Positions 1 to 41,890 of a DNA stretch of 43,617 bases are shown piece after piece. Every line of letters starts with the position of its first letter. Within the stretch, counting starts at the first letter, position 1. Source of the DNA: an uncultured Anaerolineae bacterium. GTDB lineage: Bacteria > Chloroflexota > Anaerolineae > Fen-1058. The stretch spans positions 1 through 43,617 of the forward strand of contig CAYHAR010000003.1 of NCBI GenBank assembly GCA_964354595.1. Reading direction: 5' to 3'. A model generated the notes under the pieces. It was not told the DNA's origin, searched no databases, and was given only the letters and a program-made list of their open reading frames with translations. The position numbers were made by a program, and so were the translations under genes.

Positions 1-55
1 GCGCGAAGGACGGTCGGCTGCAGCACCGGGTTGAGCCTGCTTACAGACCTTTGGG

Positions 56-176
56 GTAACTACTCAGCCCGCTCGGCTTGGATTGCCAAATCCAAGCCAA
101 ATGCGATGAGGTCTGCTCAATTTTGCTTGCCGAACGGCCGGATTTGTCAATCCGGCGGGAGCGGCTGAGTAGTTAC
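56..176. mobile_element. MITE-like 121-bp non-coding element with terminal inverted repeats and an 8-bp target-site duplication
   Basis: GTAACTACTCAGCCCGCTC (56-74) is the reverse complement of GAGCGGCTGAGTAGTTAC (159-176) apart from one extra C. The perfect direct repeat CCTTTGGG flanks it at 48-55 and 177-184. The interior has two 8-bp-stem hairpins (77-96 and 137-156) and no ORF. Confidence 0.6.
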
Positions 177-712
177 CCTTTGGGAGCAATTATGACTCGC
201 ACCGCTAGTCCGTCCTTGTCTCCGCTCAGATCATTTTCAATTCCGCGCGGGTTAGCGATTCGCCCTTCTGGATCATAGACAAAGCAAACCAGCGTCCTGC
301 AATCAGGGTGCTGTTTATACTTTTGAATATCAACCATCAACTGTTCCCCCAATTCCCTTGCCCCCAAGCCACTCCGAGTCTTTTTTGCCTCGATAACTAT
401 TTGCTCTAACTTGAGAAGGAAATCCATTCGAGAACTTCCGCCCGCATAACTTGGCGTCCACTCTTGGGGCCTAATATCGTCGTGCTCCAAAGTTAGCAAG
501 GCATGCAGCAGATCTTGGACATCGTATTCATCTTCCACATGGAGAGTATCTCTATTGCTGTGTCTTGATCGCAATTGCCTTGCAACGAGGTGAAACCGAG
601 AGCATAGGCGCTCAAGCATCAACATTCGGCGTATGCGTTCGTGTAAGGCGCTTTTTGGTTGAAACGTTTCGCCTGCTATTCTGTAATTTTGACGCTTGCT
701 CATAATAATCAT
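173..712 (-). CDS. PD-(D/E)XK-fold nuclease-like protein (about 179 aa; start uncertain, ATG 712 or 703)
   Basis: The body of track ORF 173..838 shows the E / D / ExK pattern (EDEYDVQDLLHALL ... SRMDFLLKLEQIVIEAKKT). The first 42 codons of the track ORF overlap intron domains V-VI and are rejected. The stop TAA lies inside the MITE inverted repeat. G+C is lower than in the core genes. Confidence 0.5.
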   Translation of the reverse strand: MIIMSKRQNYRIAGETFQPKSALHERIRRMLMLERLCSRFHLVARQLRSRHSNRDTLHVEDEYDVQDLLHALLTLEHDDIRPQEWTPSYAGGSSRMDFLLKLEQIVIEAKKTRSGLGARELGEQLMVDIQKYKQHPDCRTLVCFVYDPEGRIANPRGIENDLSGDKDGLAVRVIIAPKG

Positions 713-740
713 CAATTCTGACTTTAGCGGCCCAACGGTT

Positions 741-1617
741 ATAGTCGGTAGAGGAATCCCTTCCCCCGCCGCTACTTCAGAACCGGACATGAGACTTTCG
801 CACTCATCCGGCTCCTTGCCACACGAGCCTTTTGCCATACAGGCACTCTATTGTGGACGATTGCTCGCCCACAGAGCTTGACACCCGCGCTCTTGGAGTT
901 GGACAGTGTCCGGTCTTCAGTACGCTTGCGCGCCTGCCATAAGACTCAGACTCCGCCTGCTCTGGTGTCCTCTCGTGCAGCAGCCCCACGTCAGCTTATC
1001 CGACGGCTTTCCCGTCGGCCTTTGCTTCTTGGGGTATCCTCCTCCGTCAAGGCATCCGGCCTGGTCGCCTTCTCCTGTCCAGCACCGCGCAGAGACCTCT
1101 CTCCGCTCGTCCGGTCTGCGAGAGAGCACCTGACGGGTTACACCGTTCCGTGTGCCCATTTTCCGTGACCGTAGGACGACACTCTACGCCGCGTCCCTCG
1201 CATCGAGTGGAGACCACGTGCCTTAATACCACGTGGCCGAATGGGGACGTTTCCCGTTTGGGCCTGCCGGTCAGCCGTTCGGCAGGTTATCAGTCACGAC
1301 GCTTACGTGCCTTTGTCGAACATCCTGTCCATAGTCACTTGCTGGGGGCGGTCACCGCATCCGGCTAGCAGTTTATCCCCTTTTCACCCTTGCACACCCA
1401 CGATTGAGAACCAGTCGCACGCAGTAGGGTGACACTTTCACTCCTCCACTTGGAGGATAGGAGTAGGTCATTCAGTTGGTAAGGCTGAATGGCCGCACCT
1501 ATTTGGACACACAGTTGTCAAAGTTCTGGTCAACCTGCCGAATAGGTTGACGCCAACTTTCCCGCTCATCCTCACGTCATCTACATTGCATGACGGTTTC
1601 GAGCGAACGGGTCGCAC
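741..1617 (-). mobile_element. ORF-less group II intron (self-splicing ribozyme RNA); 5' end well supported, 3' end approximate
   Basis: On the minus strand the RNA starts GUGCGAC at 1617. The 7 nt just upstream, CCUUAAU (1624-1618), are perfectly complementary to AUUAAGG in the loop of hairpin CCACGUG-GUAUUAAGG-CACGUGG (about 1214-1236), giving an IBS1-EBS1 pair. Canonical domain V is at 814-780. A domain VI-like hairpin at 771-746 has an unpaired A at 749, about 8 nt before a possible AU 3' end at 741. Many GNRA-capped hairpins occur only on this strand (GAAA, GCAA, GGGA). No ORF longer than 105 aa exists in any frame across about 900 nt. Confidence 0.7.
780..814 (-). other. Group II intron domain V (catalytic hairpin)
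   Basis: The sequence is GAGCCGGAUGAGUGCGAAAGUCUCAUGUCCGGUUC. The lower helix GAGCCGG/CCGGUUC contains the AGC triad and a G.U pair. A 2-nt 3' bulge (GU), the upper helix AUGAG/CUCAU and a GAAA tetraloop follow. This matches the consensus GAGCCGUAU...GAAA...AUACGGUUC. Confidence 0.8.
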
Positions 1618-1786
1618 ATTAAGGATTCGTGCGGCGCGGTGATAGCGTACCCGCCCGCGTCGCAACGCGCGACACGTCAGCTTGTGCACGCGGATAAAGC
1701 GGGCGTCGCGGTAGGACGGCCACGCGAAGCGGCCGCCCTCTCCCCGCCCAAGGCCCTGGCAATCTTTACCTTAACATGATGACTTG

Positions 1787-2140
1787 CTACATGCCCCTAT
1801 CGCGCAATGCTTGCTCCACCCCTCGCCTGATTTTTGCTTCTTCAGGATCTTTTGCCAGTGCACCAACCATTGCAATTCCTATCAGAGCAGCAAGCCCCAA
1901 TGCTGAGGAGAAATCGCCTCCCCCTTGTGCAGGCGCAGAGTTGGGCGAAATTGTCCTCATGACATTGGCTTTATGCACCCAGCCTCTCACTCCACTTGGT
2001 AGTTGAACTATGAAATGCTGTTCCCTCTCCTCAACCACTGGAAATTTATCTTCATCCTTAAATGTGTACACGGTTTCCCATTTACCATCAGGCAGGGGAA
2101 CTGCAACATTGACCTTCACAGTTCCATAGTGTTTGCGCAT
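1787..2140 (-). CDS. Hypothetical 117-aa protein: N-terminal SH3b-like segment, glycine-rich TM helix and charged tail
   Basis: Intact ORF in a lower-GC patch. It has the segment FIVQLPSGVRGWVHKANV, then GGGDFSSALGLAALIGIAMVGALA (glycine-zipper-like TM). It starts exactly where the methyltransferase reading frame loses similarity. Confidence 0.4.
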   Translation of the reverse strand: MRKHYGTVKVNVAVPLPDGKWETVYTFKDEDKFPVVEEREQHFIVQLPSGVRGWVHKANVMRTISPNSAPAQGGGDFSSALGLAALIGIAMVGALAKDPEEAKIRRGVEQALRDRGM

Positions 2141-3329
2141 TGAGCGCCTGATAGTTTTCGCTGTGCACTAGCCAGCCATCGAGAGCGGCGTCCAAATCGT
2201 CGAACAATGCCAGAATGTCCAGTTCCAAATCGGGCAAGTGGCGCGTGTCGAGCGGCAGGAATTGGTATTGTGCATGGACGGGCGCGCCGAGCAGGTCTTT
2301 TTCCAAGATTTTTCCCAACAGACCTTTAGGGTCTTTCGCCTTGTCGTCCACCATGCCCAAGTCCTGCCATTCCTGCACCTGGGCCTTGATGCCTTTGTGG
2401 GCAAAAATCTTTTTGAGCAGTTTGGGGTCTGTGATTTTGTCCAGCGTAATCACGTAATGGCTGTTGAGCACGAACTTGGGCTTGTTCCACACGCGCACCA
2501 ACTCATCTTCAAACTGGGCGATAAAGTCAATAATTTTGTAGGCAATGTCTTTGATGGCTTGCAATTGCTTCAAGCGCGCTTCGGTGAAATTGCTCTCGCC
2601 GCCAAAGACATATTGATACAACCACAGGTCAAACTGCTCTTTCAAAAAGGCTTGCGCGTTCTTGTTGATAAAGTAATCCACTTCGGATTGCTTTTCAAAG
2701 ACGCGGCAGGCGCGCTCTAATGTTTCTTCGTCCAGCGCGATGCCCGCTGTCGCGTCTTTCAGGGCGCGCCGGATGTCGTCGCTCTTGGTCTTGCGCCCCT
2801 TTTCAGAGTAGGCAACGGTCAAAATCACCTTGCCGCCTTTATACCCCTTGAACGTATAGGTCAACTCTCGCTTTTCATTGGCGCGCTTGTGCTCCAACTC
2901 TGCAACGTCAAAATAAAAGAGCGTGCCGTCCACCTCCACGTCCATGCTGTTGAACAGGCGGTCGGTCTTGACATAGTACAGCATGTGCGTCTTCCAGAAC
3001 AACATCACGTCGCGGTCATCGGTATAGACGCGCTCGTAAATGTTCTGGTGCAGGGCGGTGTGGCGAAAGTAAATCGAGCCGCTCTCGCTGAAATAGCGTT
3101 TGAAAAAGTCGTACAGTTTATCAAACAGCTCTTCGCGGAAAGATTTCTCGAACGGCTTGCAGGCCGCGTCAATGTCTTGCATCAACTGCGGAAAGACGCC
3201 CTGCTCGAAATAGCGGGCCTTGATTTTCATCAGGTTGATGTAACCTGAATCGCCCTCCACCTTTGCGCCGATGAAAATATCTTGCAGCGCGTCGAGGAAT
3301 TGCTGTTCGTAACGGTTGGTTTGCGGCAT
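2088..3329 (-). pseudogene. N-terminal fragment of a type III/IIG-style N6-adenine DNA methyltransferase, truncated near 2140
   Basis: The 413-aa ORF carries the N-terminal region typical of Mod/IIG-like methylases (DYFINKNAQAFLKEQFDLWLYQYVF). It ends at WLVHSENYQALN, the (G)DNxxxL segment that normally precedes the catalytic domain. After about 2140 it runs into unrelated sequence (AQTLWNCEGQCCSSPA, then stop). No DPPY/NPPY domain follows. Confidence 0.55.
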
Positions 3330-3750: not shown

Positions 3751-5010
3751 ATGCCCGCACAGAATAGACGCGTCGTCGTTACCGGCATGGGAGTGATCTC
3801 GCCGCTCGGGCTGGACGTTCCCACCCTGTGGGAAAACCTGATCGCGGGCCGCTCTGGCATCCGGCCAATTACGTCGTTTGATACCATTGACTTTGACGTG
3901 CGCATCGCAGGTGAGGTTCACGGCTTTGACCCGAACCGGTACATGTCTCCAAAAGAGGCCCGCCGGATTGACCGCTTTACCCAATTCGCTATAGCAGCCC
4001 TGGAAGAGACTCGCATGCAGAGCAAACTGGTTGTCCAGGAACATGACCCTTACGAGATCGGCGCAGTCGTCGGGTCGGGAGCCGGGGGCATCTGTACGTA
4101 TGGCGTCGGGTTCAATACTTTGCGCGAGAAAGGCCCGCGCCATTTGAGTCCCTTTCACGTGCCCGCCGTCAGTTCAGATGCGGCCGCGGTGCAAGTCGCA
4201 TTATGCACCGGCGCGCGTGGGCCAAACCATGGCGTGGCTTCAGCTTGTGCTACTGGCGCCGATGCGATTGGCGAAGCCTACGAGACGATTCTGCGCGGCC
4301 ACGCCAAGGCCATGTTCACTGGTGGCTTTGAGGCGGCGATCCAGCCGATTTGCATCGCCGCCATCACCTGCACTGGCGCGCTCTCGCGCCGCAACGACTC
4401 CCCAACATCCGCCTGCCGTCCCTTCGACGCTGATCGCGATGGATTCGTCGCCGCAGAAGGCGGGGCACTCTTGCTGCTGGAAGACCTGGAATTTGCCCTG
4501 GCGCGCGGCGCGCAGCCGCTGGTTGAGCTGGTGGGCTACGCCGCCACTTCTGACGCCATTCACCTCACTGCGCCCGACCCCGAGGGAGCCGGCGCGGCCT
4601 ATTGCATGGGCCTGGCGATGCAACGCGCTGGCATTGCGCCGCAACAAGTGTCTTACATCAACGCTCACGGCACGGCGACCCGGGCTGGCGATCCGGCCGA
4701 AACCCGGGCCATCAAGCGTGCCCTGGGCGAGTATGCCTATCGCGTGCCGGTCAGTTCGACCAAGTCAATGACAGGACACCTGATGAGTGGCGCTGGCGCG
4801 TTGGAAGCAGTGATTTGCATCCAGACTCTTCTGACTGGGGTGGTTCCGCCGACTATCAACCTGGAAACACCTGATCCCGACTGTGACCTGGACTATGTAC
4901 CCAACAAAGCTCGTTCGGCTGAACTGAACGTTGTCCTGTCCAACTCAATGGGGTTTGGTGGACACAATGCCACGTTAGTGTTCCAAGCTTTTCCAGCCCA
5001 AAATGCATAG
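3751..5010 (+). CDS. fabF: Beta-ketoacyl-ACP synthase II (KAS II, FabF-type)
   Basis: RRVVVTGMGVISPLG N-terminus. The Cys-His-His triad contexts are present: ASACATG, NAHGTAT, STKSMTGHLMSGAG. The ATG at 3751 follows GAGGAA; the track ORF starts at an upstream TTG at 3733. Confidence 0.9.
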   Translation: MPAQNRRVVVTGMGVISPLGLDVPTLWENLIAGRSGIRPITSFDTIDFDVRIAGEVHGFDPNRYMSPKEARRIDRFTQFAIAALEETRMQSKLVVQEHDPYEIGAVVGSGAGGICTYGVGFNTLREKGPRHLSPFHVPAVSSDAAAVQVALCTGARGPNHGVASACATGADAIGEAYETILRGHAKAMFTGGFEAAIQPICIAAITCTGALSRRNDSPTSACRPFDADRDGFVAAEGGALLLLEDLEFALARGAQPLVELVGYAATSDAIHLTAPDPEGAGAAYCMGLAMQRAGIAPQQVSYINAHGTATRAGDPAETRAIKRALGEYAYRVPVSSTKSMTGHLMSGAGALEAVICIQTLLTGVVPPTINLETPDPDCDLDYVPNKARSAELNVVLSNSMGFGGHNATLVFQAFPAQNA

Positions 5011-5019
5011 GAGAAAGAC

Positions 5020-6249
5020 ATGCCTCTCGACAAACGCAACCTGTACCGGTTCCCGTGGTCTATGAACGATAACCCCATCGCCTGGCTCGAAATCACCGAC
5101 ATCTGCAACATCCACTGCGAGGGATGCTATCGCCAACATGTCACCGGCCACAAGCCGCTCGAGCAGGTCAAGGACGAAATCCTCTTTTTCAAACGATGGC
5201 GCAACCCCGATAACGTCTCCATCGCGGGCGGCGAGCCGTTGATTCACCCGCAGATTGTAGACATTGTGGCCTTTATCGCGCAGAACGGCATCAAGCCCAT
5301 CATCCTGACGAACGCGATGACGCTCAAGCCCGACCTCTTGCAAGAGTTGAGAAAGGCTGGGCTGGCCGGCTTTACGATCCACGTTGACAGCCGTCAGAAC
5401 CGGCCCCACTGGAAGGACAAGACCGAGCGCGAGCTGAACGAGCTGCGCCAGCAGTGCGCCGACATGATCGCAGCCGAAGGCGGCATGTACGTCATCTTCA
5501 ATTCCACCGTTTACCCTTCCACCTTTCACGAGGTTCCCAATGTGGTGCAGTGGGGGCAGGCCAACATTGATAAGGTGCACGGCCTGGTCTTTATCACCTA
5601 CCGCACGGCGACGACCGACGTCAACATCGCGCGCGACTCGGCCGACCGGGAAGTAGATTTCGGCCAGCTCAGCTATGTCCGGGAGAGTTTCGACGAAGAG
5701 TTTGTCACCGCGCCCGAGGTGTATCAAATCATCAAGGACAACTGTCCCGAGTATCAACCTTCCGGCTACCTGGGTGGGAGTATCCGGCACGACTCTTACA
5801 AATGGCTGGCCGGGGCGTGCATCGGCTCCAAGAGAAGGGTGTATGGCTCGGTCGGTAAAAAGACCATGGAGTTGGCCCAGGCGGGGCATCACGTCTTGAA
5901 GGGCACTTATCTGGCTTACCTGTCTACGGCCAGCGTCGGACGCAAAGTATTCCTGCTTTGTCCGTGGGATGACACCTTGCGCGGGGCCGCGCGCAACTGG
6001 CTGAAAGACGTCGTGCAGCATCCAGTGCGGTGGTTTGATGGCCTCTATATTCAAAGCATCGCCATCATCCAGGCCCCGGACCTCTTGCCGGATGGCCGCG
6101 CCGATATGTGCGACAGTTGTCCCGACATGACGGTCTATGACGGCAGGTTGATCAACTCGTGTCGCATGGACGAGTATCGGTTGTTCGGCGGGTTCCTGTC
6201 TGTGGTGGCCCGCTCACCTCATCCAACTGATCATCAACTCCTCACTTGA
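5020..6249 (+). CDS. Radical SAM enzyme of unassigned subfamily, with a C-terminal Cys-rich tail
   Basis: CNIHCEGCY gives the CxxxCxxC motif, followed by IAGGEPLIHP. The C-terminus carries CDSCPD...NSC. A GGAGAAAG RBS sits 2 nt upstream of the ATG, and only 9 nt separate it from fabF. Confidence 0.85.
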   Translation: MPLDKRNLYRFPWSMNDNPIAWLEITDICNIHCEGCYRQHVTGHKPLEQVKDEILFFKRWRNPDNVSIAGGEPLIHPQIVDIVAFIAQNGIKPIILTNAMTLKPDLLQELRKAGLAGFTIHVDSRQNRPHWKDKTERELNELRQQCADMIAAEGGMYVIFNSTVYPSTFHEVPNVVQWGQANIDKVHGLVFITYRTATTDVNIARDSADREVDFGQLSYVRESFDEEFVTAPEVYQIIKDNCPEYQPSGYLGGSIRHDSYKWLAGACIGSKRRVYGSVGKKTMELAQAGHHVLKGTYLAYLSTASVGRKVFLLCPWDDTLRGAARNWLKDVVQHPVRWFDGLYIQSIAIIQAPDLLPDGRADMCDSCPDMTVYDGRLINSCRMDEYRLFGGFLSVVARSPHPTDHQLLT

Positions 6250-6308: not shown

Positions 6309-7496
6309 ATGGACTTGTTCGACAAGTGCCGCAACTTTACCATCGCCCGGGAAGCAATAGCCGCCGGGATCTATCCGTATTTTACTACGCTCGACGATAA
6401 CAGCGAAGGCACCGAGGTCGTTATCCGCGGGCGCAAAGTCATCATGATCGGCTCCAACAACTACCTGGGACTGACGACCGACCCGCGCGTGCGCCAGGCG
6501 GCGATTGACGCCACCCAAAAGTATGGCACGAGTTGCACGGGCAGCCGCTTTCTCAACGGCACGCTCGAGCTGCACGTTGAAGCCGAGCGGCGACTGGCCA
6601 AGTTCGTCGGCAAGGAAGCTGCGCTGGTATTCTCGACCGGCATGCAAACCAACCTGGGCACGATCAGCGCACTGGTGGACAAGGGCGACGTGGTCATCAT
6701 TGACAAAGAGGACCACGCCAGCATCGTGGATGGCTGCCGGCTGGCCCTGGGCACAATGAAGCGCTTTATCCACAACGATATGGCCTCACTGGAAAAAGTG
6801 CTGCAATCTTGCCCGGATAGCGTAGGCAAGCTCGTCGTGGTGGATGGCATCTTTTCGATGGGCGGTGACATTGCGCCACTCCCCGAAATCGCCCAGCTGT
6901 GCAAAAAATATGGTGCACACTTGATGGTGGACGACGCTCATTCCCTCGGCGTATTGGGCGACCACGGGCGCGGCACGGCGAATCACTTTGGCCTGACCGA
7001 CCAGGTGGACCTCATCATGGGCACGTTTAGTAAGTCGTTCGCGTCGCTGGGCGGGTTCATCGCGGGAGACGACGTGGTCATGCACTATGTCCAGCATCAC
7101 GCGCGCAGTTTCATGTTCAGCGCCTCGATACCGGCGGCGAACGTGGCTGCTGCCCTGGCTGCGCTGGACATCATGGAGCACGAGCCGGAGCGCATCGAGC
7201 GGCTGTGGCACAACACCCGCAAGATGGCAGCCGGATTCAAGGCATTGGGCTTTAATATCGGCGAGAGCACGACGCCAGTCATTCCGATCTATATCGGCGA
7301 AGACATGAAGGCCGTCTTTGCGTGGAATGCGCTCTTCCAGGCGGGCGTGTACACCAACACGGTCCTCCCGCCGGCCGTCCCGCCCAACAAGTCGCTGCTG
7401 CGCACCAGCTACATGGCGACGCACACCGACGAGCAACTGGATCGCGTGCTCGAGATCTTTAGAAAGGTCGGCAAGGAATTGGGGCTGATCGGGTGA
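6309..7496 (+). CDS. PLP-dependent alpha-oxoamine synthase, serine palmitoyltransferase-like
   Basis: SNNYLGL, FSTGMQTNLGTISAL, DKEDHASIVDGC and GTFSKSFASLGGF (PLP-lysine) follow the bacterial Spt pattern (FSTGyxaNLG, DxxsHASIxDGC, GTFSKS) more closely than the KBL/BioF pattern (GTLGKA / GTFGKG). The ATG at 6309 has an AAGGAAG RBS; the track ORF begins at TTG 6246. Confidence 0.8.
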   Translation: MDLFDKCRNFTIAREAIAAGIYPYFTTLDDNSEGTEVVIRGRKVIMIGSNNYLGLTTDPRVRQAAIDATQKYGTSCTGSRFLNGTLELHVEAERRLAKFVGKEAALVFSTGMQTNLGTISALVDKGDVVIIDKEDHASIVDGCRLALGTMKRFIHNDMASLEKVLQSCPDSVGKLVVVDGIFSMGGDIAPLPEIAQLCKKYGAHLMVDDAHSLGVLGDHGRGTANHFGLTDQVDLIMGTFSKSFASLGGFIAGDDVVMHYVQHHARSFMFSASIPAANVAAALAALDIMEHEPERIERLWHNTRKMAAGFKALGFNIGESTTPVIPIYIGEDMKAVFAWNALFQAGVYTNTVLPPAVPPNKSLLRTSYMATHTDEQLDRVLEIFRKVGKELGLIG

Positions 7497-7531
7497 CAAA
7501 TTTCAAATTTCAAATGTCAAATCTCAAATTC
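7497..7531. repeat. Heptanucleotide tandem array, 5 x CAAATNT
   Basis: The units are CAAATTT CAAATTT CAAATGT CAAATCT CAAATTC. The array starts right after the stop codon at 7494-7496 and spans the start codon of the lipoprotein gene. Confidence 0.85.
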
Positions 7532-8116
7532 ACGTGGTGGGTTGTTGTGATGGCGATGTTGGTTGGATGCGCTGCGCCGCAACCGACGGTATTGCCTCCT
7601 ACAGTTGCCCCTTCGGCCACGCCCGTGGTGACGTGGACGCCGGCGCCAACCGTCGCGCCGGCCGGGCCCGCGGCGACGTGGACGCCCGTGGCGACGCTTG
7701 CGCCGCAGGCTTATCTTGAAGCCATGCGCGAGGCGGCCTCGGCGATGCGCCTGGCGACCAAGACGCTGGAACACACAGACATTGTGCTGACTCGCCACCT
7801 CACCGACACGGTCCCTTCGCGCGAAGTGTTGAGCCTGGCGTCGAGCGATGGCCGCATTGTCCGGATGATGGGCGAGTCGTTGCGGCAATATCAGGGGCGC
7901 GGTTTGTTCACGCCAGCGCTGACCGATGCCCTCGCCGCGCTCGACTCGGCAGATGCTACTTTTCGCATGATCGCGAGCGGCAGCGGAGATCCCCTCGAGA
8001 TGCTGCTCGCTATCCAGGATGCAGAGGTGCAGCTTTTGATGGCGAGGCAAGATTTTCGGGACGAGTTGATCGCCCATGGCGTGCCAGAGGCGCAGGCGGA
8101 TGAGCTGGTGCGTTGA
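7514..8116 (+). CDS. Putative lipoprotein, function unknown
   Basis: MSNLKFTWWVVVMAMLVGC has a signal peptide and an L-V-G-C lipobox. A Pro/Thr/Ala-rich linker and a helical domain follow. Start is either ATG 7514 or upstream at 7493. Confidence 0.6.
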   Translation: MSNLKFTWWVVVMAMLVGCAAPQPTVLPPTVAPSATPVVTWTPAPTVAPAGPAATWTPVATLAPQAYLEAMREAASAMRLATKTLEHTDIVLTRHLTDTVPSREVLSLASSDGRIVRMMGESLRQYQGRGLFTPALTDALAALDSADATFRMIASGSGDPLEMLLAIQDAEVQLLMARQDFRDELIAHGVPEAQADELVR

Positions 8117-10040: not shown

Positions 10041-10126
10041 TGGTGGGCAGTGAAGGATTCGAACCTCCGAAGGCGTCAGCCAGCAGATTTACAGTCTGCC
10101 CCGTTTGGCCACTTCGGTAACTGCCC
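10041..10126 (-). tRNA. tRNA-Tyr: tRNA-Tyr (GTA), long variable arm, CCA encoded
   Basis: The reverse complement folds as acceptor GGGCAGU/ACUGCCC, anticodon arm GCAGA-CUGUAAA-UCUGC, long variable arm, and T arm GGAGG-UUCGAAU-CCUUC, ending ACCA. Confidence 0.9.
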
Positions 10127-10146
10127 ATGTTGTAAATGATCAGGCA

Positions 10147-10219
10147 AGCCGACGGCGGGACTTGAACCCGCGACCTTGCGCTTACAAGGCGCTTGCTCTG
10201 CCAGCTGAGCTACGTCGGC
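10147..10219 (-). tRNA. tRNA-Thr: tRNA-Thr (TGT)
   Basis: The reverse complement folds as acceptor GCCGACG/CGUCGGC, D arm GCUC-AGCUGGCA-GAGC, anticodon loop CUUGUAA, and T arm GCGGG-UUCAAGU-CCCGC. CCA is not encoded. Confidence 0.9.
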
Positions 10220-23835: not shown

Positions 23836-24816
23836 TCAAACGGACTGGCGGGCTGCTCTGAATTGCGCGATTACTTGATCGAGCGTCTCATCCAGTGAGA
23901 TGGTGGGCTGCCAGCCGACGGTTGCCTTGATTTTTTGTGTGTCAGGCACCCGGCGACGCATGTCCTCAAAGCCGTCCTCGTAGGCCCGATCGTAAGGAAC
24001 CAGCTTGATTTCCGAGCGGCTGCCCGACCTTGCCAAGACACGCCGGGCCAGGTCGAGAATGGTGATCTCTTCGTGGCTGCCCACGTTAAAAATCTCCCCG
24101 ACTGCGCGCGGCTCGGAGGCGAGCGCAAGTACGGCTCGCACAGTGTCTTGGACGTTGCAAAAGCAACGGCTTTGCTGGCCGTCGCCATAGACGGTCAACG
24201 GCTGGCTGGCCAACGCCTGCTGAACGAGGCGGGGAATGACCATGCCATACATTCCAGTCTGGCGCGGGCCGACGGTGTTGAAAAAGCGGCAGATGATTAC
24301 CGGCGTCTCGAACTGTTTGTGATACGCCAGCGCCAGAAACTCGTCCATTGCCTTGGACTCGGCATAGCACCAGCGGCTCTTGGTGGTCGGCCCCATCACG
24401 CGGTCGGCGTCCTCGTGGAACGGAATCTCGTCGCTCTTGCCATACACTTCGGAAGAGGAGGCGAGCAGGATTTTTTTGCGATAGCGCAGAGCGAGTCGCA
24501 GTATTGTCTCCGTGCCGCGCAGATTGGTCTCGATAGTTTGAATCGGGTCTCGGACAATCAATTCCACGCCGACCACCGCTGCCAGGTGATAAATCACGTC
24601 GCACTCGCTCACTAGCCGATCCATCACGGTCTCGTTGAGAATGGTTTCGCGGACAAAGTGGAACTGAGGATGACTCGTCAGCCCGGCAATGTTCTCGATC
24701 CGCCCGGTGGAGAGATCGTCTACTGCAACCACGCGCTGTCCTTGAGCCAACAAGGCTTCAGCCAAATGACTGCCGATAAAACCTGCGCCGCCGGTGATGA
24801 GAGCTTGAGTGGTCAT
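23836..24816 (-). CDS. NAD-dependent sugar-nucleotide epimerase/dehydratase (UXS/ArnA-C-terminal-like SDR)
   Basis: ITGGAGFIGSH, YAESK and CRFFNTVGPRQ. The ATG at 24816 shares one base with the upstream TGA (TGATG). Confidence 0.85.
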   Translation of the reverse strand: MTTQALITGGAGFIGSHLAEALLAQGQRVVAVDDLSTGRIENIAGLTSHPQFHFVRETILNETVMDRLVSECDVIYHLAAVVGVELIVRDPIQTIETNLRGTETILRLALRYRKKILLASSSEVYGKSDEIPFHEDADRVMGPTTKSRWCYAESKAMDEFLALAYHKQFETPVIICRFFNTVGPRQTGMYGMVIPRLVQQALASQPLTVYGDGQQSRCFCNVQDTVRAVLALASEPRAVGEIFNVGSHEEITILDLARRVLARSGSRSEIKLVPYDRAYEDGFEDMRRRVPDTQKIKATVGWQPTISLDETLDQVIAQFRAARQSV

Positions 24817-26225
24817 CAATACGCCCCTTTGCCGCGGATGACCACGCCCAGCGTCATCCACAAGATTTTCAAGTCGAGCCACAGCGAATAGTTGCGGATG
24901 TAGTAGAGATCATACTGCGTGTTCAGATGCATGGGGAGGTCGCTGCGCCCGCTCACCTGCCACCAGCCCGTGATGCCCGGCGGGACGGCCAGCCGCTGGC
25001 GCTGCCACGGCTCGTAATGGGCGGCGATGAACTCTTGCTCCGGGCGCGGACCGACCAGGCTCATCTCGCCGCGCAGCACGTTGACGAGTTGCGGCAATTC
25101 GTCCAGGCTCGTCCGCCGCAACAAGCGACCCACGCGCGTGACGCGCGGATCGTTTGGACGCTTGTAAACCGGGTGCCCCACCTCATCCGTAGCGACTACC
25201 GATTCCGCCAACTGGTCCGCGCCTTGCACCATCGTGCGAAATTTCAGCGTCCAAAACTCTTTGCAATTCTCTCCCACGCGCCGCTGGCGAAAGATGGCCG
25301 GGCCGGGGCTATCGAGCTTGATGGCAATGGCGAGGAGCAGCAGCACCGGCCACAGCAGCGCCAGCGCCAGCGCGCTCAAGACCACGTCGGTCGCCCGCTT
25401 GATGGCCCAGTTCGCGCCGTCAATCACCGGCTCGCGCACGCCGATGAGCGGCACTGGGCCGAGCATCTCGACGCTGGCGCGCACCAGCGCCAGCTTGAGC
25501 AGGTCGGGCGCAACGCGCACGCGCACCGGCAGCGAGTGAAGATCGTACACCACGCGCTCGATCTGGTCGTATTGCGACGAGGGCAACGTGATGACCACTT
25601 CGTCGCAGCCGAACTCGCGCACCAGTCGGGCTGTATCGGCCACGCGGCCCAACACGGGCAAGCCGGTCAGCGCGTCGGCGGGCAGCTCATCGTCCACAAA
25701 ACCCAACACGGTGAGCACCGGCCCCAAGTCGCGCGCAATGGCGGCGGCTACCTCCACGCCCGGCTCGCCCGCGCCGACGATGAGCACCTGGCCGGGGCGC
25801 ATCTTTTGTCGCAGCAAGCGCAGCGCCGTCACGCCCGCCACGCGCAGGAGCGTCAAAAGCGCCCAATCCAGCGCGGCAAAGTAGATCACGAGCAGGCGCG
25901 AGACTTCACGAAACGAAAAATACAACGCGCCAGCCAGCACCAGGATGGCTACCGGCATCGCCTTGCTCATCCGGCGCACCTGGGTCGCAATGTTCATTGC
26001 CCCTTGCGATTCATAGACGCCGAGCACCTGGAACACGGGTGTCCACACGAGCGCGACGATAGCGTAGACGAGCGGGCTGAGCACGTCGCCGGAGCCGAGC
26101 GTCTTACCTGGCAGTAGGGGCCGCAGCGCTTCGGCCAGCGCAAGCGCGACCATCGTCGCGGCGAGGTCGGCGGCGGAAAGCAAAGCCAGGAATCGGCGGA
26201 ATCGTCTAAACATCTCTGCGACCAA
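24816..26225 (-). CDS. Polyprenyl-phosphate hexose-1-phosphate transferase (WbaP/WcaJ-type priming enzyme)
   Basis: N-terminal TM helices, a central Rossmann-like segment ([10 protein letters not shown]), and a C-terminal Bac_transf core ([12 protein letters not shown]...[21 protein letters not shown]). Confidence 0.9.
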
Positions 26226-26235
26226 TGGTCGGCGA

Positions 26236-27774
26236 TCAGTGATCCGTCAGTTTCAGTAGGTGGATGGGATGGTTGTCGCTTTGAAGCGTTTCCACTAGAA
26301 CTAGTCGCGGGTCAGACTGTGGGTGCTCGTACAGCGCATCCAGAGCTATAGGATGATTGGCCTCCAAGGCCATCCAGGTCGCGCCATATCGCCGGGCTGC
26401 AGCCAGCAGTGTGTCTACGTCGCCATTGGGGATTGCGATGGCTGGCTGACCCGTGTGATAGAAATAGCCCGGCGGATTGTTGACCATCACGATGGCCGAT
26501 GGCTGATAGTTCAGCCGCGCGCCGATGGACTGGTAGACGGCGTCGGCCTTGTTCCAGTCGCGCGCGCGCGGTAAATAAATCGCAGCGCTGAACACGATGG
26601 CAAAAGCGACCAATCCCCACGTAAAGACGTGTTGGGCCATTCTTGTATTCCACGTGGCGCGGCGCGTGGCAATCCAATCCACCGCCGCGTCCAGCCCAAC
26701 CATCGCTGCGGCAAAGATAAAAGGCAACAACGCTGCGCTCGAATGAAACATGCCGCCGCGCACACCAGGAAACGTAAAGGCGAGCGACATGGCCAGGTAG
26801 AGCGCCGCGCTGTAGAGTGTCACGATTTGATACAGCGCATCCCGTCGCCGCAGCCAAAATCCAATGACCACGAATGGAGCAAGGAACACCAGTCCATCCA
26901 CCGCGATCAGCGTCAACAGGTTTGACCACAGCCCGTCGAGCTTGGAACGCAGAATATTCTCCGCGCCCCAGGCCAGGTATGTTGACAGGTCCAATGTCCT
27001 GCCAAAGCTGTAAAGGTCGTCGTAGGTGGTCAGGAACAAGGTCTTGGCGCCCGCTGTCGAAAGCAGCCGTCCTGTCACTGCCCAGTTGTGGATCAGCCAG
27101 GGACTCGTCACGGCAGCATAGCCAAGCGCCATCCACAGCCCATGGCGAGCGCGCGAAATGATTGTACCACGATTCAAGGCCAGCATGAGCAGCGCACACA
27201 CCAAGAGCAGCACGCCATCTGCGCGCGTCAGGTGAGCCAGTCCCGCGCACACGCCGGCGACGAATCCCCATCGCTCCCTCTTGCTGGCCGCCCACAGGCT
27301 CAGTGATCCAAACACTGCGAACAGCGCGAACGTTTCGGGCATTGCCCAGAACGACACAAAAAAGCCGGAAAAGATGGCAAACAGCGCAGCCGCCCAGCCG
27401 TGACGACGATTGGCCGATGTCTGCCAGGCGACAGCGTAAGCAATCACCGGCAGCAGCGCGGAAAGCAGAATGAATGGAACTTGTGCCGCACGAAAGTTGA
27501 CGCCGAAAACGCGCATCGAAAGCGCGGCCAAGATGGAGGGTAGCGGCATCCAGTACTGATAGCTGGGCCGGGGTAGGGCGGGTGGATCGTCGAGATAATT
27601 CCAGATGAACGGCTCGGTGAACCCACGCCCGGTCGCCAACTGCTGTGCGCCGACGGTGTAATAGTAGGCGTCCATGTAGCCGGGCTGCATCTGCGGGAGC
27701 GCAAATCCGATCCGCGCCACAAGGGCTAGGGCAAACACCAATGCCAGATCGCGCCAGACTGTTCGACTGTTCAT
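26236..27774 (-). CDS. GT-C fold (family 39/ArnT-like) membrane glycosyltransferase
   Basis: Polytopic protein with first-loop motif PGYMDAYYY and a C-terminal soluble domain. ATGA overlap at 27771-27774. Confidence 0.7.
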   Translation of the reverse strand: MNSRTVWRDLALVFALALVARIGFALPQMQPGYMDAYYYTVGAQQLATGRGFTEPFIWNYLDDPPALPRPSYQYWMPLPSILAALSMRVFGVNFRAAQVPFILLSALLPVIAYAVAWQTSANRRHGWAAALFAIFSGFFVSFWAMPETFALFAVFGSLSLWAASKRERWGFVAGVCAGLAHLTRADGVLLLVCALLMLALNRGTIISRARHGLWMALGYAAVTSPWLIHNWAVTGRLLSTAGAKTLFLTTYDDLYSFGRTLDLSTYLAWGAENILRSKLDGLWSNLLTLIAVDGLVFLAPFVVIGFWLRRRDALYQIVTLYSAALYLAMSLAFTFPGVRGGMFHSSAALLPFIFAAAMVGLDAAVDWIATRRATWNTRMAQHVFTWGLVAFAIVFSAAIYLPRARDWNKADAVYQSIGARLNYQPSAIVMVNNPPGYFYHTGQPAIAIPNGDVDTLLAAARRYGATWMALEANHPIALDALYEHPQSDPRLVLVETLQSDNHPIHLLKLTDH

Positions 27775-29369
27775 GGCGACTCTACTCGATAGATCGTCAC
27801 GTCGCCCGCGCGGAATGTCTGAATCAGATATGGCGCGCGCGATGGATCGAACGTGCCCAGGGCGCGCTCGTCCGGGCCGTGATACACGTAGCGCACTCTG
27901 AATCGCTTCAACGTCGCTTGACGCTCGACGTCGGCCGAGGTCGCGTCAAAGAACGCCGCGACCTCGGCGTGCTTGCCGCCATAGTCCACCGTTTCCGCCC
28001 AATGGCCTAGCACGACGCGATGGCCGATCCGCGCCGGGATCAGGCTGCCCACCGATTCGGAGGCTAGTACCGTCTCGTCTGGCGACGAGTGCGCGCCCAG
28101 CCAGTTAATCGCGGCGATTCGATCGGCGGGGTGAAAAAATTTCTCGCTGTGCATGGATGCCAGCGTCGTGTAGCCAATGACCATGTACACGTTCGACATG
28201 GACGCAAGGGCCAGAATAAAGTTGATGACCACAAAGCCCACTCGCGCCGACATGCGTTCAGATAGCCTGGCCAGGCCATACGCCGCGACGAGGCACAGGG
28301 GAACATGGAGCCCCTCGGCAAAGCGGCGCTGAATGCCGACCGGAAGGTATAGCATCACGCACGCCACACCAATCCAGATCAGCACGAAAACGGCTCGGTC
28401 ACTACATTCGCGCACAAAGCGCCTCACTCCCAGAAGGGCAAACACCAGCACCAGTCCGAACCCAAGTACATAAAAAATCGGCGGGGGCGATAACGTAATG
28501 TTTTGTACCGCCCACTGCTGAAATACCGGATCGCCAATGAAAACGATCACACTGTATAGCAATACCGGGGCGGCACCCGCCATTGCTGCGGAGACGAGCC
28601 ACCACCAGCGGGCAGAAACGCCACGGCGCCGAATCAATTGCATCACTCCAAACGCCATCGCCGGGCCGATGATGATGGCTATCGCGTAGGGGTGAATCGT
28701 GGTGAGCAAGAACGCAAACAGTGCTGTTATGGCACAGGCGGCTAGGCCTCTTGTCGAGACTCCAAGAGCAGGCGGCTCCAGCTGCTCGATCAGGCGTATA
28801 GAGATTTCTAGCAGCAGCGTCATCGCAGCCGTAAAGTGCGGAAAAATCATGATCGAAAAGAACGAATTGGCGTCAATCAACCAAAAGTCAATCGGCGAGA
28901 TGCCATTCGGACCGGCTGGCGCGACAATCTGTACCAGCCAACCCAACCCTGACGAGAACGCGACCAGCGCCAAAGCCAGCCGGTGAACTGTGCGCGTTGG
29001 CTGGAAGGCTGCAATGAAACGATGCGCCGCGACGAGGAACAGCGCGCCAAAAACAATTCGCGCCAGTTGATAGACCAGAGGCAGGGATAGACCTGTCGCG
29101 CGAGCCAGGTGTCCGAGCGCAACGTAGAACGTTTGCAGGTACGCGCCCGCGTGATCTTCGGGCGTGAACAGCAAATGATATAGCCACTCTCCTTGCGCGC
29201 CTTGCTGCATCTTGGCGAGGTGGCTGTGGTAATCGTCCAGATCGAACACCGCGCCGGAAAAACGCGCGTCGTTCGTCTGCGCGGCATATCCCATCACGTA
29301 AGGCGCAGCGGAAAGCGTGAGCGCAGCCACAATCACCACGGCGACGTAGAGGCGGTCAGCGCAAGTCAT
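27771..29369 (-). CDS. Polytopic membrane protein, GT-C-like (family unassigned)
   Basis: 532 aa with 12 or more hydrophobic segments, first loop FDLDDYHSHLAKMQQG, and a C-terminal soluble domain. Confidence 0.6.
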   Translation of the reverse strand: MTCADRLYVAVVIVAALTLSAAPYVMGYAAQTNDARFSGAVFDLDDYHSHLAKMQQGAQGEWLYHLLFTPEDHAGAYLQTFYVALGHLARATGLSLPLVYQLARIVFGALFLVAAHRFIAAFQPTRTVHRLALALVAFSSGLGWLVQIVAPAGPNGISPIDFWLIDANSFFSIMIFPHFTAAMTLLLEISIRLIEQLEPPALGVSTRGLAACAITALFAFLLTTIHPYAIAIIIGPAMAFGVMQLIRRRGVSARWWWLVSAAMAGAAPVLLYSVIVFIGDPVFQQWAVQNITLSPPPIFYVLGFGLVLVFALLGVRRFVRECSDRAVFVLIWIGVACVMLYLPVGIQRRFAEGLHVPLCLVAAYGLARLSERMSARVGFVVINFILALASMSNVYMVIGYTTLASMHSEKFFHPADRIAAINWLGAHSSPDETVLASESVGSLIPARIGHRVVLGHWAETVDYGGKHAEVAAFFDATSADVERQATLKRFRVRYVYHGPDERALGTFDPSRAPYLIQTFRAGDVTIYRVESP

Positions 29370-29372
29370 GGC

Positions 29373-30911
29373 TCACTCTCCCACACGCTCGTAGCGATAC
29401 ACGCGCAGATTGCCCAACGCGATCACCTCCGCGCGGCGAAAGCGCGCGTCCATCCAGCTCAAGTCGGGGTGCTCGCGCCCGACGGCCTTGTACTCGGCAA
29501 TGGCCTGCTCGTACATCACCACCCACACGCGCCGCGCGCCCGAGGTGGCCGCGTCGAGCGTCGTCGCGTAAAGCCCCAGCGCCTGCTGAGTGGGATAGGC
29601 CAGCGTGTCCTCGCCGGAGCCGGGCGCGTCGCGGACAAAGCTCTGCGGCAATGACTGGTCGTAATAGTGCGCGGGGAAAAACGTCAGCTTGTTAGCGTGG
29701 ACGATCACGTCGCCCGGCTCGATTTTTTCGCGGAGCATTGCGTCGAGTTGGGCGAACGGCCCGCGCGGAAAATCCTGGTAGCTATAGTAACTCGCCAGCG
29801 TCGCGATGACCAGCCCGGCCAGAATCGCCGATAGCGTATAACGCGCCACGCGCGGCACCTGCGCCACGGTCCACGCGGCCAGAAGCAGGTAACAAGTTGC
29901 TGCTGGGAGCAGTCCTCGAATGACGTACACCGGCCGCCACTGCGAGACCAGGAACAACATCAACACGGGCGCAAAAGCCAGCGTCGCCAGCAGCCACACG
30001 CCAAAGTGTGCAGGAGCGCCCTCATGGGCGCGATGTCGCGCCTGGGAAAGCGCTCCTACCAATTGCACGATCACCACGACGAGCAACAGCACTGCGCCGA
30101 ACAGAGCCGGAGCAATCAGGCCGCGTGGAAAGATGGCGTTCTCAAAATCAAAACTAAAGACGATAAGCGTCTGCACGAGCGTCTTCAAGTCGGGCCGTGT
30201 TACCCAATAAGCCTGCTCGATCTTGCCGAACTGGCTCGGCACCAAAGCCAGCCAGGGTGACCACAGTATCGCCATGATCAATCCGGCTAGTGTGGTCTTG
30301 ACCACCAAAACCCAATACAACCGACCCGACAAAGCGCATGCGACGACAAACACTCCCAATGCCACAAATGTGAGAAAGCCCAGGTTGTGACTGTATAATG
30401 TCAGCGTCCCCAAGATGACAAAGGCGATCCACGCGCGGAGTCTGCCCGTCCGAGCCGCTCGAATAAAAGCCCACAGCGAAGCCGCGCTGCAAAATCCCAG
30501 GAGCGCATACATCCGTGTCTCTTGCGAATAAGCGATGAGGAACGGCGACGCCACCGTGAAAGCGGCGGCCCACACCGCCACGCGCTCATCGAATAGTTCG
30601 CGCGCCAATCCCCACGCCGCGACGACAGTTCCCAGGCCCAACAACATGGAAGGCATTCGCACGGCGAGCGGTGTTTGCCCTACGAGTTGCATCCATCCGT
30701 GAAGCGCAAAGTAATACAGCACGGGGTGCACGTCCGCTGCCGCGCCCTGGACCCGCGCGAGCGTCCCGTACAAAATCTCGCTCATACTTCGGCTGGCATA
30801 CAGCACAGCGAACGCCTCATCATACCAGAGTAGCCGGTCACTCAAGTTGACGAGTCGCAACGCCGCCGCCAACGTCAACAAGCCAATCAATGCCCAGGAG
30901 ATGCGCTTCAT
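29373..30911 (-). CDS. GT-C fold family 39-like membrane glycosyltransferase
   Basis: First-loop motif LWYDEAF. It is paralogous to 34418..35848 and 35851..37281 and shares SPF(L/H)I(A/W)YSQE(T/D)RMYA. Confidence 0.8.
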   Translation of the reverse strand: MKRISWALIGLLTLAAALRLVNLSDRLLWYDEAFAVLYASRSMSEILYGTLARVQGAAADVHPVLYYFALHGWMQLVGQTPLAVRMPSMLLGLGTVVAAWGLARELFDERVAVWAAAFTVASPFLIAYSQETRMYALLGFCSAASLWAFIRAARTGRLRAWIAFVILGTLTLYSHNLGFLTFVALGVFVVACALSGRLYWVLVVKTTLAGLIMAILWSPWLALVPSQFGKIEQAYWVTRPDLKTLVQTLIVFSFDFENAIFPRGLIAPALFGAVLLLVVVIVQLVGALSQARHRAHEGAPAHFGVWLLATLAFAPVLMLFLVSQWRPVYVIRGLLPAATCYLLLAAWTVAQVPRVARYTLSAILAGLVIATLASYYSYQDFPRGPFAQLDAMLREKIEPGDVIVHANKLTFFPAHYYDQSLPQSFVRDAPGSGEDTLAYPTQQALGLYATTLDAATSGARRVWVVMYEQAIAEYKAVGREHPDLSWMDARFRRAEVIALGNLRVYRYERVGE

Positions 30912-32131
30912 CGCGTCTCACCCCGAACCACGTCTTGTCCCGGCATGAGGCGCAGTGCCAGCATGACCAGGAACAATGTCACGGGCAGAATGGGCGACAG
31001 GATGACGTGCTCCACGCGGTACCCCAGCGGATCCGATGGGATCACGCCAGCGGCACGGACTCCCCACATTCCCACTACCGTTGCCAAGGCCAGTCCCGTG
31101 CCGATCACTTTGCCCCACACGCCGCGCGCCGAGAGATCATGCAACACCATCACGAGTGGCAACAACAGCATCACCTGGTTGACCAGTGACGTGCGCGGCG
31201 CGATGAGCGTTGTGACGACCAGTGTGAAGCTGATTGCCCACATTGGCAAGGGTTGTGTGCGCCACTCGCGCCACCAAGCTTCGGTCAGCCCGGCCAGCAG
31301 CGACAGAACCAACACCACGGTTACTGCGCTGGCTTGCTTCGTGGCGATGACCTCTCCCATCAACGCCACGGGCGACGGAAAAGGCTGCGCCTCATAGTAA
31401 CTTGTCGCTGCCCGCCAGGTGCCCATCAGCCAACTGGGACACACGACGAAAGAAGCCAACATCAGCGCTCCCAGCGCAGCGGCAAAGGACACCAAGAAAC
31501 GATAGCGACGTTGAGCCACTGCCCAGAGCAGCAATGTCGGCGCTAGCAAAAAGACCATCTGCGGCTTGGCCGTTGTCAGCGCCAGGCAGGTCCCGGCCCA
31601 ACTGTCTTGCTTGGCGCGCAAAGCCAGCAGTGTTGCCATCATCAGCGCAAAGACCGGGGGGGAAACTTGGCCCAGCAACAACGCCCAAGTCATTGGATAG
31701 AACACCAAAGCTCCGAGTGTCACGAGGAGCACCCGGCGAGCCGAAAGCTCCCAGCCTGCGACTCGCATCGCGCCCACAGCGCCGAGAACTGCAGCTAGCT
31801 CCAACACTGTGAACCACGCTGCTTGCGCCCAAGGCAGTGGCAGCAAGAACAACGGCAACAAGAAAAGCAGAATGTAGAGCGGGTAAACAAAGGCGCGATT
31901 GTCTTCGTCCTTTTGCGCTGGGCGGCCATAAGATTGCATTTGGAGCAAGTGAGTCAGTTCATCGGAATAGGGGCTGCCGCGCCCTTCTATCATCCATCGC
32001 CCGGCCTGCCACAGCGGCTGCAAATCCCACACGAGCAGCTTTTTCTGAGAAGTCAGAGTCGTATATATCCCGACCGTGTTGCCCACCAGGAAAAGAGCAA
32101 CCAGCACGATTAGCAGTGCACTCTTTCTCAC
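30908..32131 (-). CDS. DUF2029/GT87-like (PimE-type) membrane mannosyltransferase-like protein
   Basis: WDLQPLWQAGRWMIEGRGSPY ... FVYPLYILLFLLPL, polytopic. ATGA overlap at 30908-30911. Confidence 0.65.
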   Translation of the reverse strand: MRKSALLIVLVALFLVGNTVGIYTTLTSQKKLLVWDLQPLWQAGRWMIEGRGSPYSDELTHLLQMQSYGRPAQKDEDNRAFVYPLYILLFLLPLFLLPLPWAQAAWFTVLELAAVLGAVGAMRVAGWELSARRVLLVTLGALVFYPMTWALLLGQVSPPVFALMMATLLALRAKQDSWAGTCLALTTAKPQMVFLLAPTLLLWAVAQRRYRFLVSFAAALGALMLASFVVCPSWLMGTWRAATSYYEAQPFPSPVALMGEVIATKQASAVTVVLVLSLLAGLTEAWWREWRTQPLPMWAISFTLVVTTLIAPRTSLVNQVMLLLPLVMVLHDLSARGVWGKVIGTGLALATVVGMWGVRAAGVIPSDPLGYRVEHVILSPILPVTLFLVMLALRLMPGQDVVRGETR

Positions 32132-32147
32132 CGATCGTCTCCTTGAC

Positions 32148-34414: not shown

Positions 34415-34417
34415 GGC

Positions 34418-35848: not shown

Positions 35849-35850
35849 CT

Positions 35851-41862: not shown

Positions 41863-41884
41863 TAAACGCCTCTCCCTCTATAAT
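41856..41884 (+). promoter_or_regulatory. Sigma-70-like promoter predicting a leaderless mRNA for the gene starting at 41891
   Basis: TTGCCA (41856-41861), an exact 17-nt spacer, then TATAAT (41879-41884). The ATG at 41891 lies 6 nt after the -10 box and no RBS is possible. Confidence 0.4.
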
Positions 41885-41890
41885 ATCGCC

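Follow-up and report, generated by a model that had tools for sequence, protein, structure and literature searches.

A contig of 43,617 nt from an uncultured Anaerolineae bacterium (the entire NCBI record, which we refer to as the window) carries close to its start a complete 880-nt group II intron lacking a protein gene of its own, in the leader of a small PD-(D/E)XK-type nuclease gene; all features described for this region are on the minus strand. We consider it likely that the element is a non-autonomous, open-reading-frame (ORF)-less group IIB intron, inserted in an attC-like junction between gene cassettes and unlinked in function to the nuclease gene behind it. The preliminary description of the locus, made from the window alone, had proposed an ORF-less intron in the leader of the nuclease gene, which stands, and as one option a joint mobility unit of intron and nuclease, which does not.

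Boundaries and fold of the intron

Comparison of sequences confirmed the element at 1617..738 as a genuine and complete ORF-less group II intron, as first proposed, through a Rfam match, an empty site and a covarying fold of six domains. The Rfam model Intron_gpII (RF00029) reached 51.5 bits on domains V and VI (816..738), exceeding its gathering score of 40, and a plastid domain V model matched the intron at an E-value of 2.5e-11. The group-II-D1D4 models of Rfam, which represent particular lineages only, gave no match at E-values of up to 10, hence the covariance-model check suggested at the outset succeeded with Intron_gpII and drew a blank with D1D4. The ends of the intron, GUGCGAC...CUAUAAC (GUGCG...AAC), conform to GUGYG at the 5' and AY at the 3' end. 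The boundaries 1618|1617 and 738|737 are exact because a metagenome contig, L002, in which the nuclease gene is 96% identical, carries the intron-less allele: here the exons are joined directly (...gaatccttaat|cgttgggccgc), at the junction CCTTAAT|CGTTGGGC. The preliminary description had suggested looking for an empty site, though with CCUUAAU followed by AACCG. Intron copies 100% identical to that of the window were found in two loci (L175 and L241).

Eighteen ORF-less copies sharing 65–100% identity could be aligned end to end (alignment A1). RNAalifold on this alignment returned a consensus of 205 pairs arranged in the six canonical domains, 129 of which showed compensatory changes, for example GG/CC, GU/AC and CC/GG pairs in domain V, and the minimum-free-energy fold of the single sequence had a z-score of -4.5 relative to shuffles. 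The window copy possesses every invariant position of its family. Both the 5' GUGCGAC at 1617 and the domain V near 814–780 of the preliminary description were recovered, the latter at 815..779 in the consensus fold, whilst the A at 749, thought to be unpaired in domain VI, is only a C.A mismatch in the window copy. The conserved bulged A in the 18-copy consensus is A745, 7 nt from the 3' splice site, and is the presumed branch point.

Exon-binding sites and subgroup

The pairing of exon-binding site 1 (EBS1) with intron-binding site 1 (IBS1) proposed from the window (AUUAAGG with CCUUAAU) is complete at 7 of 7 positions, and is joined by covariation in other copies spanning five independent target types: GACCAU/AUGGUC (L131), GGAUUC/GAAUCC (L162), CCAGAUG/CAUCUGG (L203) and AAUAAGG/CUUUAUU (L179) are examples. 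The AUUCG beside the EBS1 hairpin, put forward earlier as EBS2, is invariant across copies regardless of the exon and is therefore not EBS2; the covarying EBS2 is at 1293..1289, the variable pentamer of a GUGA-NNNNN-AACC motif, with the pairs GUUAG/CUAAC, GUGGC/GCCAC and UUGAU/AUCAA among the copies. An earlier search for an EBS3 column among 11 sequences found none, the column emerging with 18 sequences, where it changes in step with the opening nucleotide of the 3' exon in 16 of the 18 (17 if wobble is allowed). In the window copy, IBS1/EBS1 and IBS3/EBS3 are intact. An EBS2 upstream of EBS1 in domain I and a separate EBS3 give the IIB arrangement, and, taken with the lineage of the intron-encoded protein (IEP) of its relatives, which carries RVT_N and is closest to the T.el4h IIB maturase, these sequence features place the intron in subgroup IIB.

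Loss of the protein gene within the family

The largest ORF within the intron is 80 aa, and the absence of a reverse transcriptase (RT)/maturase ORF stated at the outset held up, also in a tblastn search of the window (see below). Full-length relatives do encode such a protein: one in an Anaerolineales metagenome-assembled genome (MAG), L074, is 2.34 kb long with an ORF of 549 aa, others are found in L023 and L089, and metagenome copies in L188, L132/L217, L137, L127 and L191. Their IEP comprises RVT_N, RVT_1 and GIIM domains (Pfam) and has an HNH motif at its C-terminus. Among homologues of solved structure it comes nearest to the T.el4h group IIB maturase/RT (6ME0, E-value 3e-105), with IIC and IIA proteins much more distant. 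Domain IV of the window copy aligns to the L074 ORF at its first codons (MAGEP...) and its last codons, the middle having been deleted. The DIVa stem, which holds the remnant of the IEP start codon, is preserved in ORF-less copies by compensatory changes (alignment columns 788–836). In characterised introns DIVa is the primary binding site of the IEP, and its retention therefore favours a non-autonomous retroelement served in trans. Domain IV also holds a hairpin with a GAGYAAUC loop, common to many ORF-less copies and not found in the IEP-bearing ones.

The family is abundant: at least 120 JGI metagenome contigs carry the first 22 nt of the intron exactly, and the IEP-bearing relatives have an identical 22-nt 5' end. 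Amongst 39 copies with a locatable 3' end, 28 are ORF-less (359–1033 nt) and the other 11 have greater lengths. Frameshifted ORFs occur in the family as well, as do copies in which only N- and C-terminal stubs of the IEP are left. In a neighbour-joining tree the clade of the window intron consists of 13 copies, all ORF-less and at no fewer than four target types, and the IEP-bearing copies lie on other branches, intermixed with ORF-less ones. Strict monophyly of the ORF-less copies was rejected, the IEP-bearing L127 nesting among them in this tree. Copies 96–98% identical to the window intron are present at other sites (L195 and L058), implying that its sub-lineage moved recently; the L058 copy, of which the intron end is 98% identical, is in an Anaerolineae MAG contig. 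The host of the intron family is probably Chloroflexota. One otherwise ORF-less copy, in L138, reaches 1756 nt owing to a 271-aa transposase-like ORF (5287–6102) in the opposite orientation inside its domain IV, which we assigned to IS5/DDE by eye.

Insertion at attC-like cassette junctions

The intron interrupts the target junction ATCAATCCTTAAT|CGTTGGGC. Its 5' exon, containing IBS1 and the IBS2 position (1630..1626), is the 3' half of an attC-like repeat which we call X-type, and on the other side the nuclease cassette opens with GTTGGGC (736..730), an R' core of attC type (GTTRRRY), which puts the intron in the spacer, 1 nt before the R' core. Copies at the same site have a common 5' exon (...CCGCGCCGCAYSAAUCCUUAAU), and their 3' exons begin C|GTTRGGC and then diverge fully (L195, L207, L158/L179, L170 and L058). 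In other members of the family the insertion point is exactly G|TTRGGCGGC or GT|TRGGC, following ...GTCGGCTGCAxC..., and further insertions occur within GCCTAAC-N8|CAAGCCGAC; by their sequence these positions belong to attC-type sites, of which they represent the R' core and the R''/L'' boxes. The family thus uses three sub-sites, one inside L'', one at R' and one in the spacer that precedes R', and its copies are in sense orientation relative to the cassette genes, on the top strand. The 3' exons of the whole family share TTRGGCGGC, which would fit recognition of the 3' exon by the IEP, as occurs in IIB introns whose IEP has an endonuclease (En) domain.

X recurs three times in L138, ca. 1 kb apart, between toxin–antitoxin cassettes (MNT, BrnT/BrnA), and empty X copies are present in L002, L138, L220 and L240. 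X ends in an 88-nt stretch of the form GTTCAAC-...GGATTATGCGGCG...CGCCGCAT(C)AATCC-TTAATC-GTTGGGC, which in intact copies forms an imperfect hairpin where R'' pairs with R' and L'' with L'. The unit as a whole is ORF-less, cassette-like and ca. 190–545 nt long (L002 3478–4022, L138, L195, L236, L158, L179, L181 and L243), with the invariant blocks ATTCCAAA, GGCTTAGTTCAACTCWGGATTAYG and GGCGGCTTTC and a promoter-like TTGACY-N17-TACAAT pointing toward the next cassette; X may act as a mobile cassette that supplies a promoter or leader. Other identities for X were rejected: an older intron, as the intron profile gave no match, and a known RNA family, as there was no Rfam match. A structured RNA was without support, since 4 of 24 pairs covary, the 3' 88 nt fitting the attC hairpin instead. 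Separately, L055, an unrelated cyanobacterial locus (Synechococcales MAG), holds the sole IntI-like gene seen (6779–7688, 41% identity to an approximate IntI1 query, E-value 1e-55); it adjoins a different, IEP-bearing group II intron with the same domain V sequence (4226–4260), oriented as the presumed cassettes are.

Proposed origin and mobility of the intron

The intron would descend from an ancestor encoding a ca. 549-aa RT/maturase/HNH protein, of which nearly the whole ORF was deleted whilst the ribozyme and the DIVa stem around the former start codon were retained. Because it lies in sense orientation, it would be co-transcribed with the cassette and splice via the A745 branch, with CCUUAAU-CGUUGGGC as the predicted ligated exons. 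Reverse splicing into DNA, directed by EBS1 and EBS3 and weakly by EBS2, would have brought it to its present site. Maturase, RT and endonuclease would have been supplied in trans by an IEP that a related intron encoded within the same cell, and this protein would provide reverse transcription and second-strand cleavage during spread into attC-type DNA. The nuclease would have no role in this mobility.

Several observations weigh against such an account. Tblastn with the IEP of a relative found no RT match in the whole 43.6-kb contig, and with no IEP gene visible there trans-complementation is inferred. All sampled members of the window's clade are ORF-less, down to ca. 65–70% identity, and a matching helper was not identified. 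The window's IBS2 (ACGAA) is mismatched with its own EBS2. Of the X-type site in front of the intron the upstream attC half (R''/L'') is missing and the 3' 88–110 nt are left; moreover, no integron integrase (IntI-like) match was obtained in the window or the family loci with an approximate IntI1 sequence as the probe, on a contig that stops inside an attC. Without IntI in the window, and with half of the attC missing, the locus is therefore at best a remnant of a cassette cluster.

Taken further, these features could describe an inert fossil, a single arrival that is neither spliced nor mobile, a stretch of 880 nt without function within a remnant of cassettes that is itself decaying. Besides the missing attC half, the mismatched IBS2 and the tblastn result, the neighbouring type III methyltransferase gene is truncated, and in L001 an identical nuclease gene is preceded by no more than the final 63 nt of the intron. 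We regard a fossil as unlikely, however, as the window copy has all the family-invariant positions with IBS1/EBS1 and IBS3/EBS3 intact, and the 96–98% identical copies at other sites (L195 and L058) imply recent movement. There is a similarly small chance that the intron belongs to an old, purely ORF-less IIB lineage moving and retargeting among cassette junctions in sense orientation, by parasitising distant IEPs or protein-free in a HYER-like manner; such a lineage might also make or reshuffle cassettes, a process in which group IIC-attC introns were once proposed to take part.

HYER ribozymes are reportedly hydrolytic RNAs derived from group II introns, and their defining property is that, as dimeric ribozymes, they cleave DNA or RNA by hydrolysis without a protein, at targets specified by a recognition sequence. 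The window intron resembles them in that it is ORF-less, present in many copies, derived from group II and equipped with a short sequence for recognising its target, and could by analogy be a protein-free, hydrolytic, sequence-directed RNA/DNA endonuclease that is no longer a retroelement. Its clade is ORF-less throughout and has nonetheless diversified, acquiring at least four different target sites, ORF-less copies share a domain IV hairpin not found in the IEP-bearing ones, and they outnumber the ORF-bearing copies by 28 to 11. We nevertheless judge this quite improbable, since the copies are precisely integrated at sites complementary to their own EBS1, EBS2 and EBS3, which is the footprint of reverse splicing and cDNA synthesis and not of cleavage. 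The bulged A of domain VI is conserved, compensatory change maintains the protein-binding DIVa stem, and IEP-bearing relatives share the 22-nt 5' end; compared with HYER, the family differs in pairing at three EBS and in keeping both a domain VI with a branch site and a putative IEP-binding stem.

The nuclease gene as an independent cassette

The ORF at 173..838 (221 aa) reads through domains V and VI, and its N-terminus is false, as the preliminary description had claimed: the gene starts at ATG 703, 34 nt past the 3' splice site, or at ATG 712, 25 nt past it. A public entry of 206 aa (P0001) likewise starts inside domain V/VI and so bears a false N-terminal extension, whilst other extended homologues (P0003, P0004, P0011, P0017 and P0021) read through attC sequence instead. 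Similarity among the nuclease homologues begins at the GTTGGGC core. The small PD-(D/E)XK nuclease expected just after the splice site was borne out by a match over the full profile of Pfam PF18742 (REase_DpnII-MboI, 1.2e-57); the protein consists of the PD-(D/E)XK domain only, and also matches the C-terminal nuclease part of the PADLOC Aga_Helical-REase models. D93 and E99 of the D...ExK motif, seen in the translation as MDF...EAK, are nearly invariant, and the 5023 relatives in databases come in forms of ca. 177 and ca. 260 aa. A sequence search against the PDB gave no match. The AlphaFold model (pLDDT 88) produced weak fold matches (E-value ca. 0.02) to R.BspD6I, EndoMS, Can2 and BstYI; its best matches are thus restriction and repair nucleases, with I-Ssp6803I not among the top matches. 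We rejected the idea that exon 1 encodes the N-terminal end of a longer nuclease interrupted by the intron: after splicing, the frame contains a stop 17 codons before the junction, and the N-terminal domain of the ca. 260-aa homologues is unrelated.

Behind the gene lies an 82-nt attC that folds into an imperfect hairpin (GCYCAAC...GTTAGGC) and is present in full in L001 (737–818) and L002 (4592–4673). With a G|TTRRRY bound at one end and an attC of imperfect R''/L''...L'/R' symmetry at the other, the nuclease gene has the sequence structure of an integron-type gene cassette. It was found in six distinct contexts, with the full intron in that of the window only. In L002 the cassette follows an empty X-type site, in L003 and L247/248 an ordinary attC, and in L249–252 an overlapping GNAT acetyltransferase gene, in each case without the intron. 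The homologue in L249–L252 is 83–84% identical and overlaps the GNAT stop codon by one base, which suggests a two-gene module in one lineage. In L001 the nuclease gene is 100% identical and is preceded by the last 63 nt of the intron only (from the middle of domain V), joined to unrelated DNA; apart from this tail, the intron profile matched none of the other nuclease loci. The junction in L001 (1–164) could be a 5'-truncated copy, a deletion or an assembly chimera at a repeat. Conversely, introns 83–98% identical at the same kind of site precede unrelated sequences in L195, L207, L158/L179 and L058, in the last case a membrane protein gene. Nuclease genes without the intron, and introns before other genes, therefore make the two neighbours by accident of cassette order, and the nuclease is probably defence- or toxin-like cassette cargo.

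The idea of intron and nuclease as one mobile unit, with the nuclease cutting empty sites for DNA-based homing, could draw on their adjacency and co-orientation, seen in the window and again in L175 and L241, which are identical to it, and on an intact D...ExK motif in a PD-(D/E)XK-like model, but we find it barely credible given the empty site in L002, the other intron-less nuclease loci, the close intron copies before other sequences, the position of the nuclease outside the intron with its own attC, and fold matches that favour restriction and repair enzymes over I-Ssp6803I.

Comparison with known systems

ORF-less group II introns that are mobilised in trans have been reported from Thermosynechococcus elongatus (the T.el family) and from Methanosarcina. 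The intron in the window shares with both an IIB-type ribozyme from which the IEP ORF has been deleted out of domain IV with DIVa kept, the coexistence of ORF-less copies with IEP-bearing relatives, and the acquisition of new sites through EBS changes, and with T.el also the closeness of its relatives' IEP to the T.el4h maturase. The window family differs from them in its probable Chloroflexota host and its attC-like targets at cassette junctions, and the ORF-less clade of the window is old (ca. 65–100% identity) with a shared replacement hairpin in domain IV.

Group IIC-attC introns (e.g. S.ma.I2) have a class C RNA without EBS2, encode an IEP without an endonuclease domain and lie antisense in attC; to our knowledge they are the only introns that target attC. 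The window family similarly homes to attC sites, some members exactly at the G|TTRRRY core; its RNA however is large, with EBS2 and EBS3, the IEP of its relatives has an HNH domain, and it inserts in the orientation of the cassette genes and not antisense. Judged by its sequence against this definition, the family falls outside the IIC-attC group on EBS2, the En domain and orientation.

The nuclease gene resembles the cassettes of integrons and CALIN-type clusters in starting G|TTGGGC, in ending with an 82-nt imperfect palindromic attC, and in occurring in many unrelated contexts among toxin–antitoxin and defence cassettes. It departs from them in that the window has no IntI match and that the attC upstream of it is truncated and of the unusual X type.

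Layout of the locus

The coordinates of the features are collected in Table 1. A scan of positions 1..2400 for promoters and terminators gave nothing above shuffles on the minus strand. The 413-aa ORF upstream of the intron matches only positions 2–394 of the 816 in PADLOC profile PDLC03638 (4.9e-146), the type III methyltransferase gene being truncated directly after an ...HSENYQALN motif, and the missing C-terminal half was found neither in the contig nor downstream in L001. The 121-nt insert at the end of the nuclease gene is missing from L001, which is otherwise identical; it provides the nuclease stop codon and leaves the protein one residue shorter (APKG* vs. APKGL*), and a related pair of insert termini is present in L207. 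Elsewhere on the minus strand of the window are two adjacent tRNA genes (10044–10219) and a long series of ORFs of ca. 400–600 aa each (ca. 24800–41900), of which one, looked up at 26236–27774, is an ArnT-like glycosyltransferase by its JGI name; in L247 and L249, too, the nuclease cassette has PMT_2 glycosyltransferases as its neighbours.

Table 1 Features of the intron locus, in window coordinates (MITE, miniature inverted-repeat transposable element).
Feature	Position	Strand	Basis or remark
413-aa ORF	3329..2088	-	N-terminal half of type III methyltransferase profile
117-aa ORF	2140..1787	-	without firm family
G+C-rich spacer, 170 nt	between 117-aa ORF and intron		
5' exon, 3' half of attC-like X-type repeat	1618..1705	-	86% identical to L002 3935–4022
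Complete ORF-less group II (IIB-type) intron, 880 nt	738..1617	-	Rfam RF00029, L002 empty site, consensus fold
5' splice-site consensus GUGCGAC	1617..1611	-	read directly
Domain I	1610..1143	-	RNAalifold on A1
EBS2 CUGAU	1293..1289 (intron nt 325–329)	-	pairs with exon -13..-9 in relatives
EBS1 AUUAAGG, hairpin loop	1227..1221	-	7/7 pairing with IBS1 CCUUAAU, 1624..1618
EBS3 G	1184 (intron nt 434)	-	pairs with first 3'-exon nucleotide
Domain II	1136..1044	-	RNAalifold on A1
Domain III	1034..984	-	RNAalifold on A1
Domain IV, reduced	982..817	-	RNAalifold and alignment to L074 IEP ORF
DIVa stem with remnant IEP start codon, AUGGCAGGCG	940..928	-	aligned to L074 IEP start
Lineage-specific domain IV hairpin, GGGCGAGCAAUCGUCC	870..855	-	
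Domain V: AGC triad, 2-nt bulge, GAAA loop	815..779	-	Rfam and compensatory changes
Domain VI	775..741	-	Rfam and RNAalifold
3' exon start, C|GTTGGGCCGC	737..727	-	C737 is IBS3
Nuclease gene, 176 aa	703..173	-	ATG at 703; alternative ATG 712
Palindromic MITE-like insert, 121 nt	176..56		terminal inverted repeats GTAACTACTCAGCC, flanking CCCAAAGG duplication
attC closing nuclease cassette: R'' (GCTCAAC) and L'' (CTGCAGCCGAC)	36..13	-	contig ends within site

Significance of the intron family

Taken alone, the intron of the window is a textbook ribozyme and, at the level of a single locus, an ordinary member of its kind. One practical consequence concerns annotation, as gene callers add false N-termini here: the 206-aa and 221-aa nuclease entries read through domains V and VI. 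The interest lies at the level of the family, an abundant environmental IIB lineage, probably of Chloroflexota, specialised for attC-like junctions on the sense strand, through which attC targeting would extend past the small IIC-attC group. The protein gene is gone from most of the members sampled, yet these show fresh target changes in EBS1, EBS2 and EBS3, and the family represents a natural series of retargeted ORF-less ribozymes.

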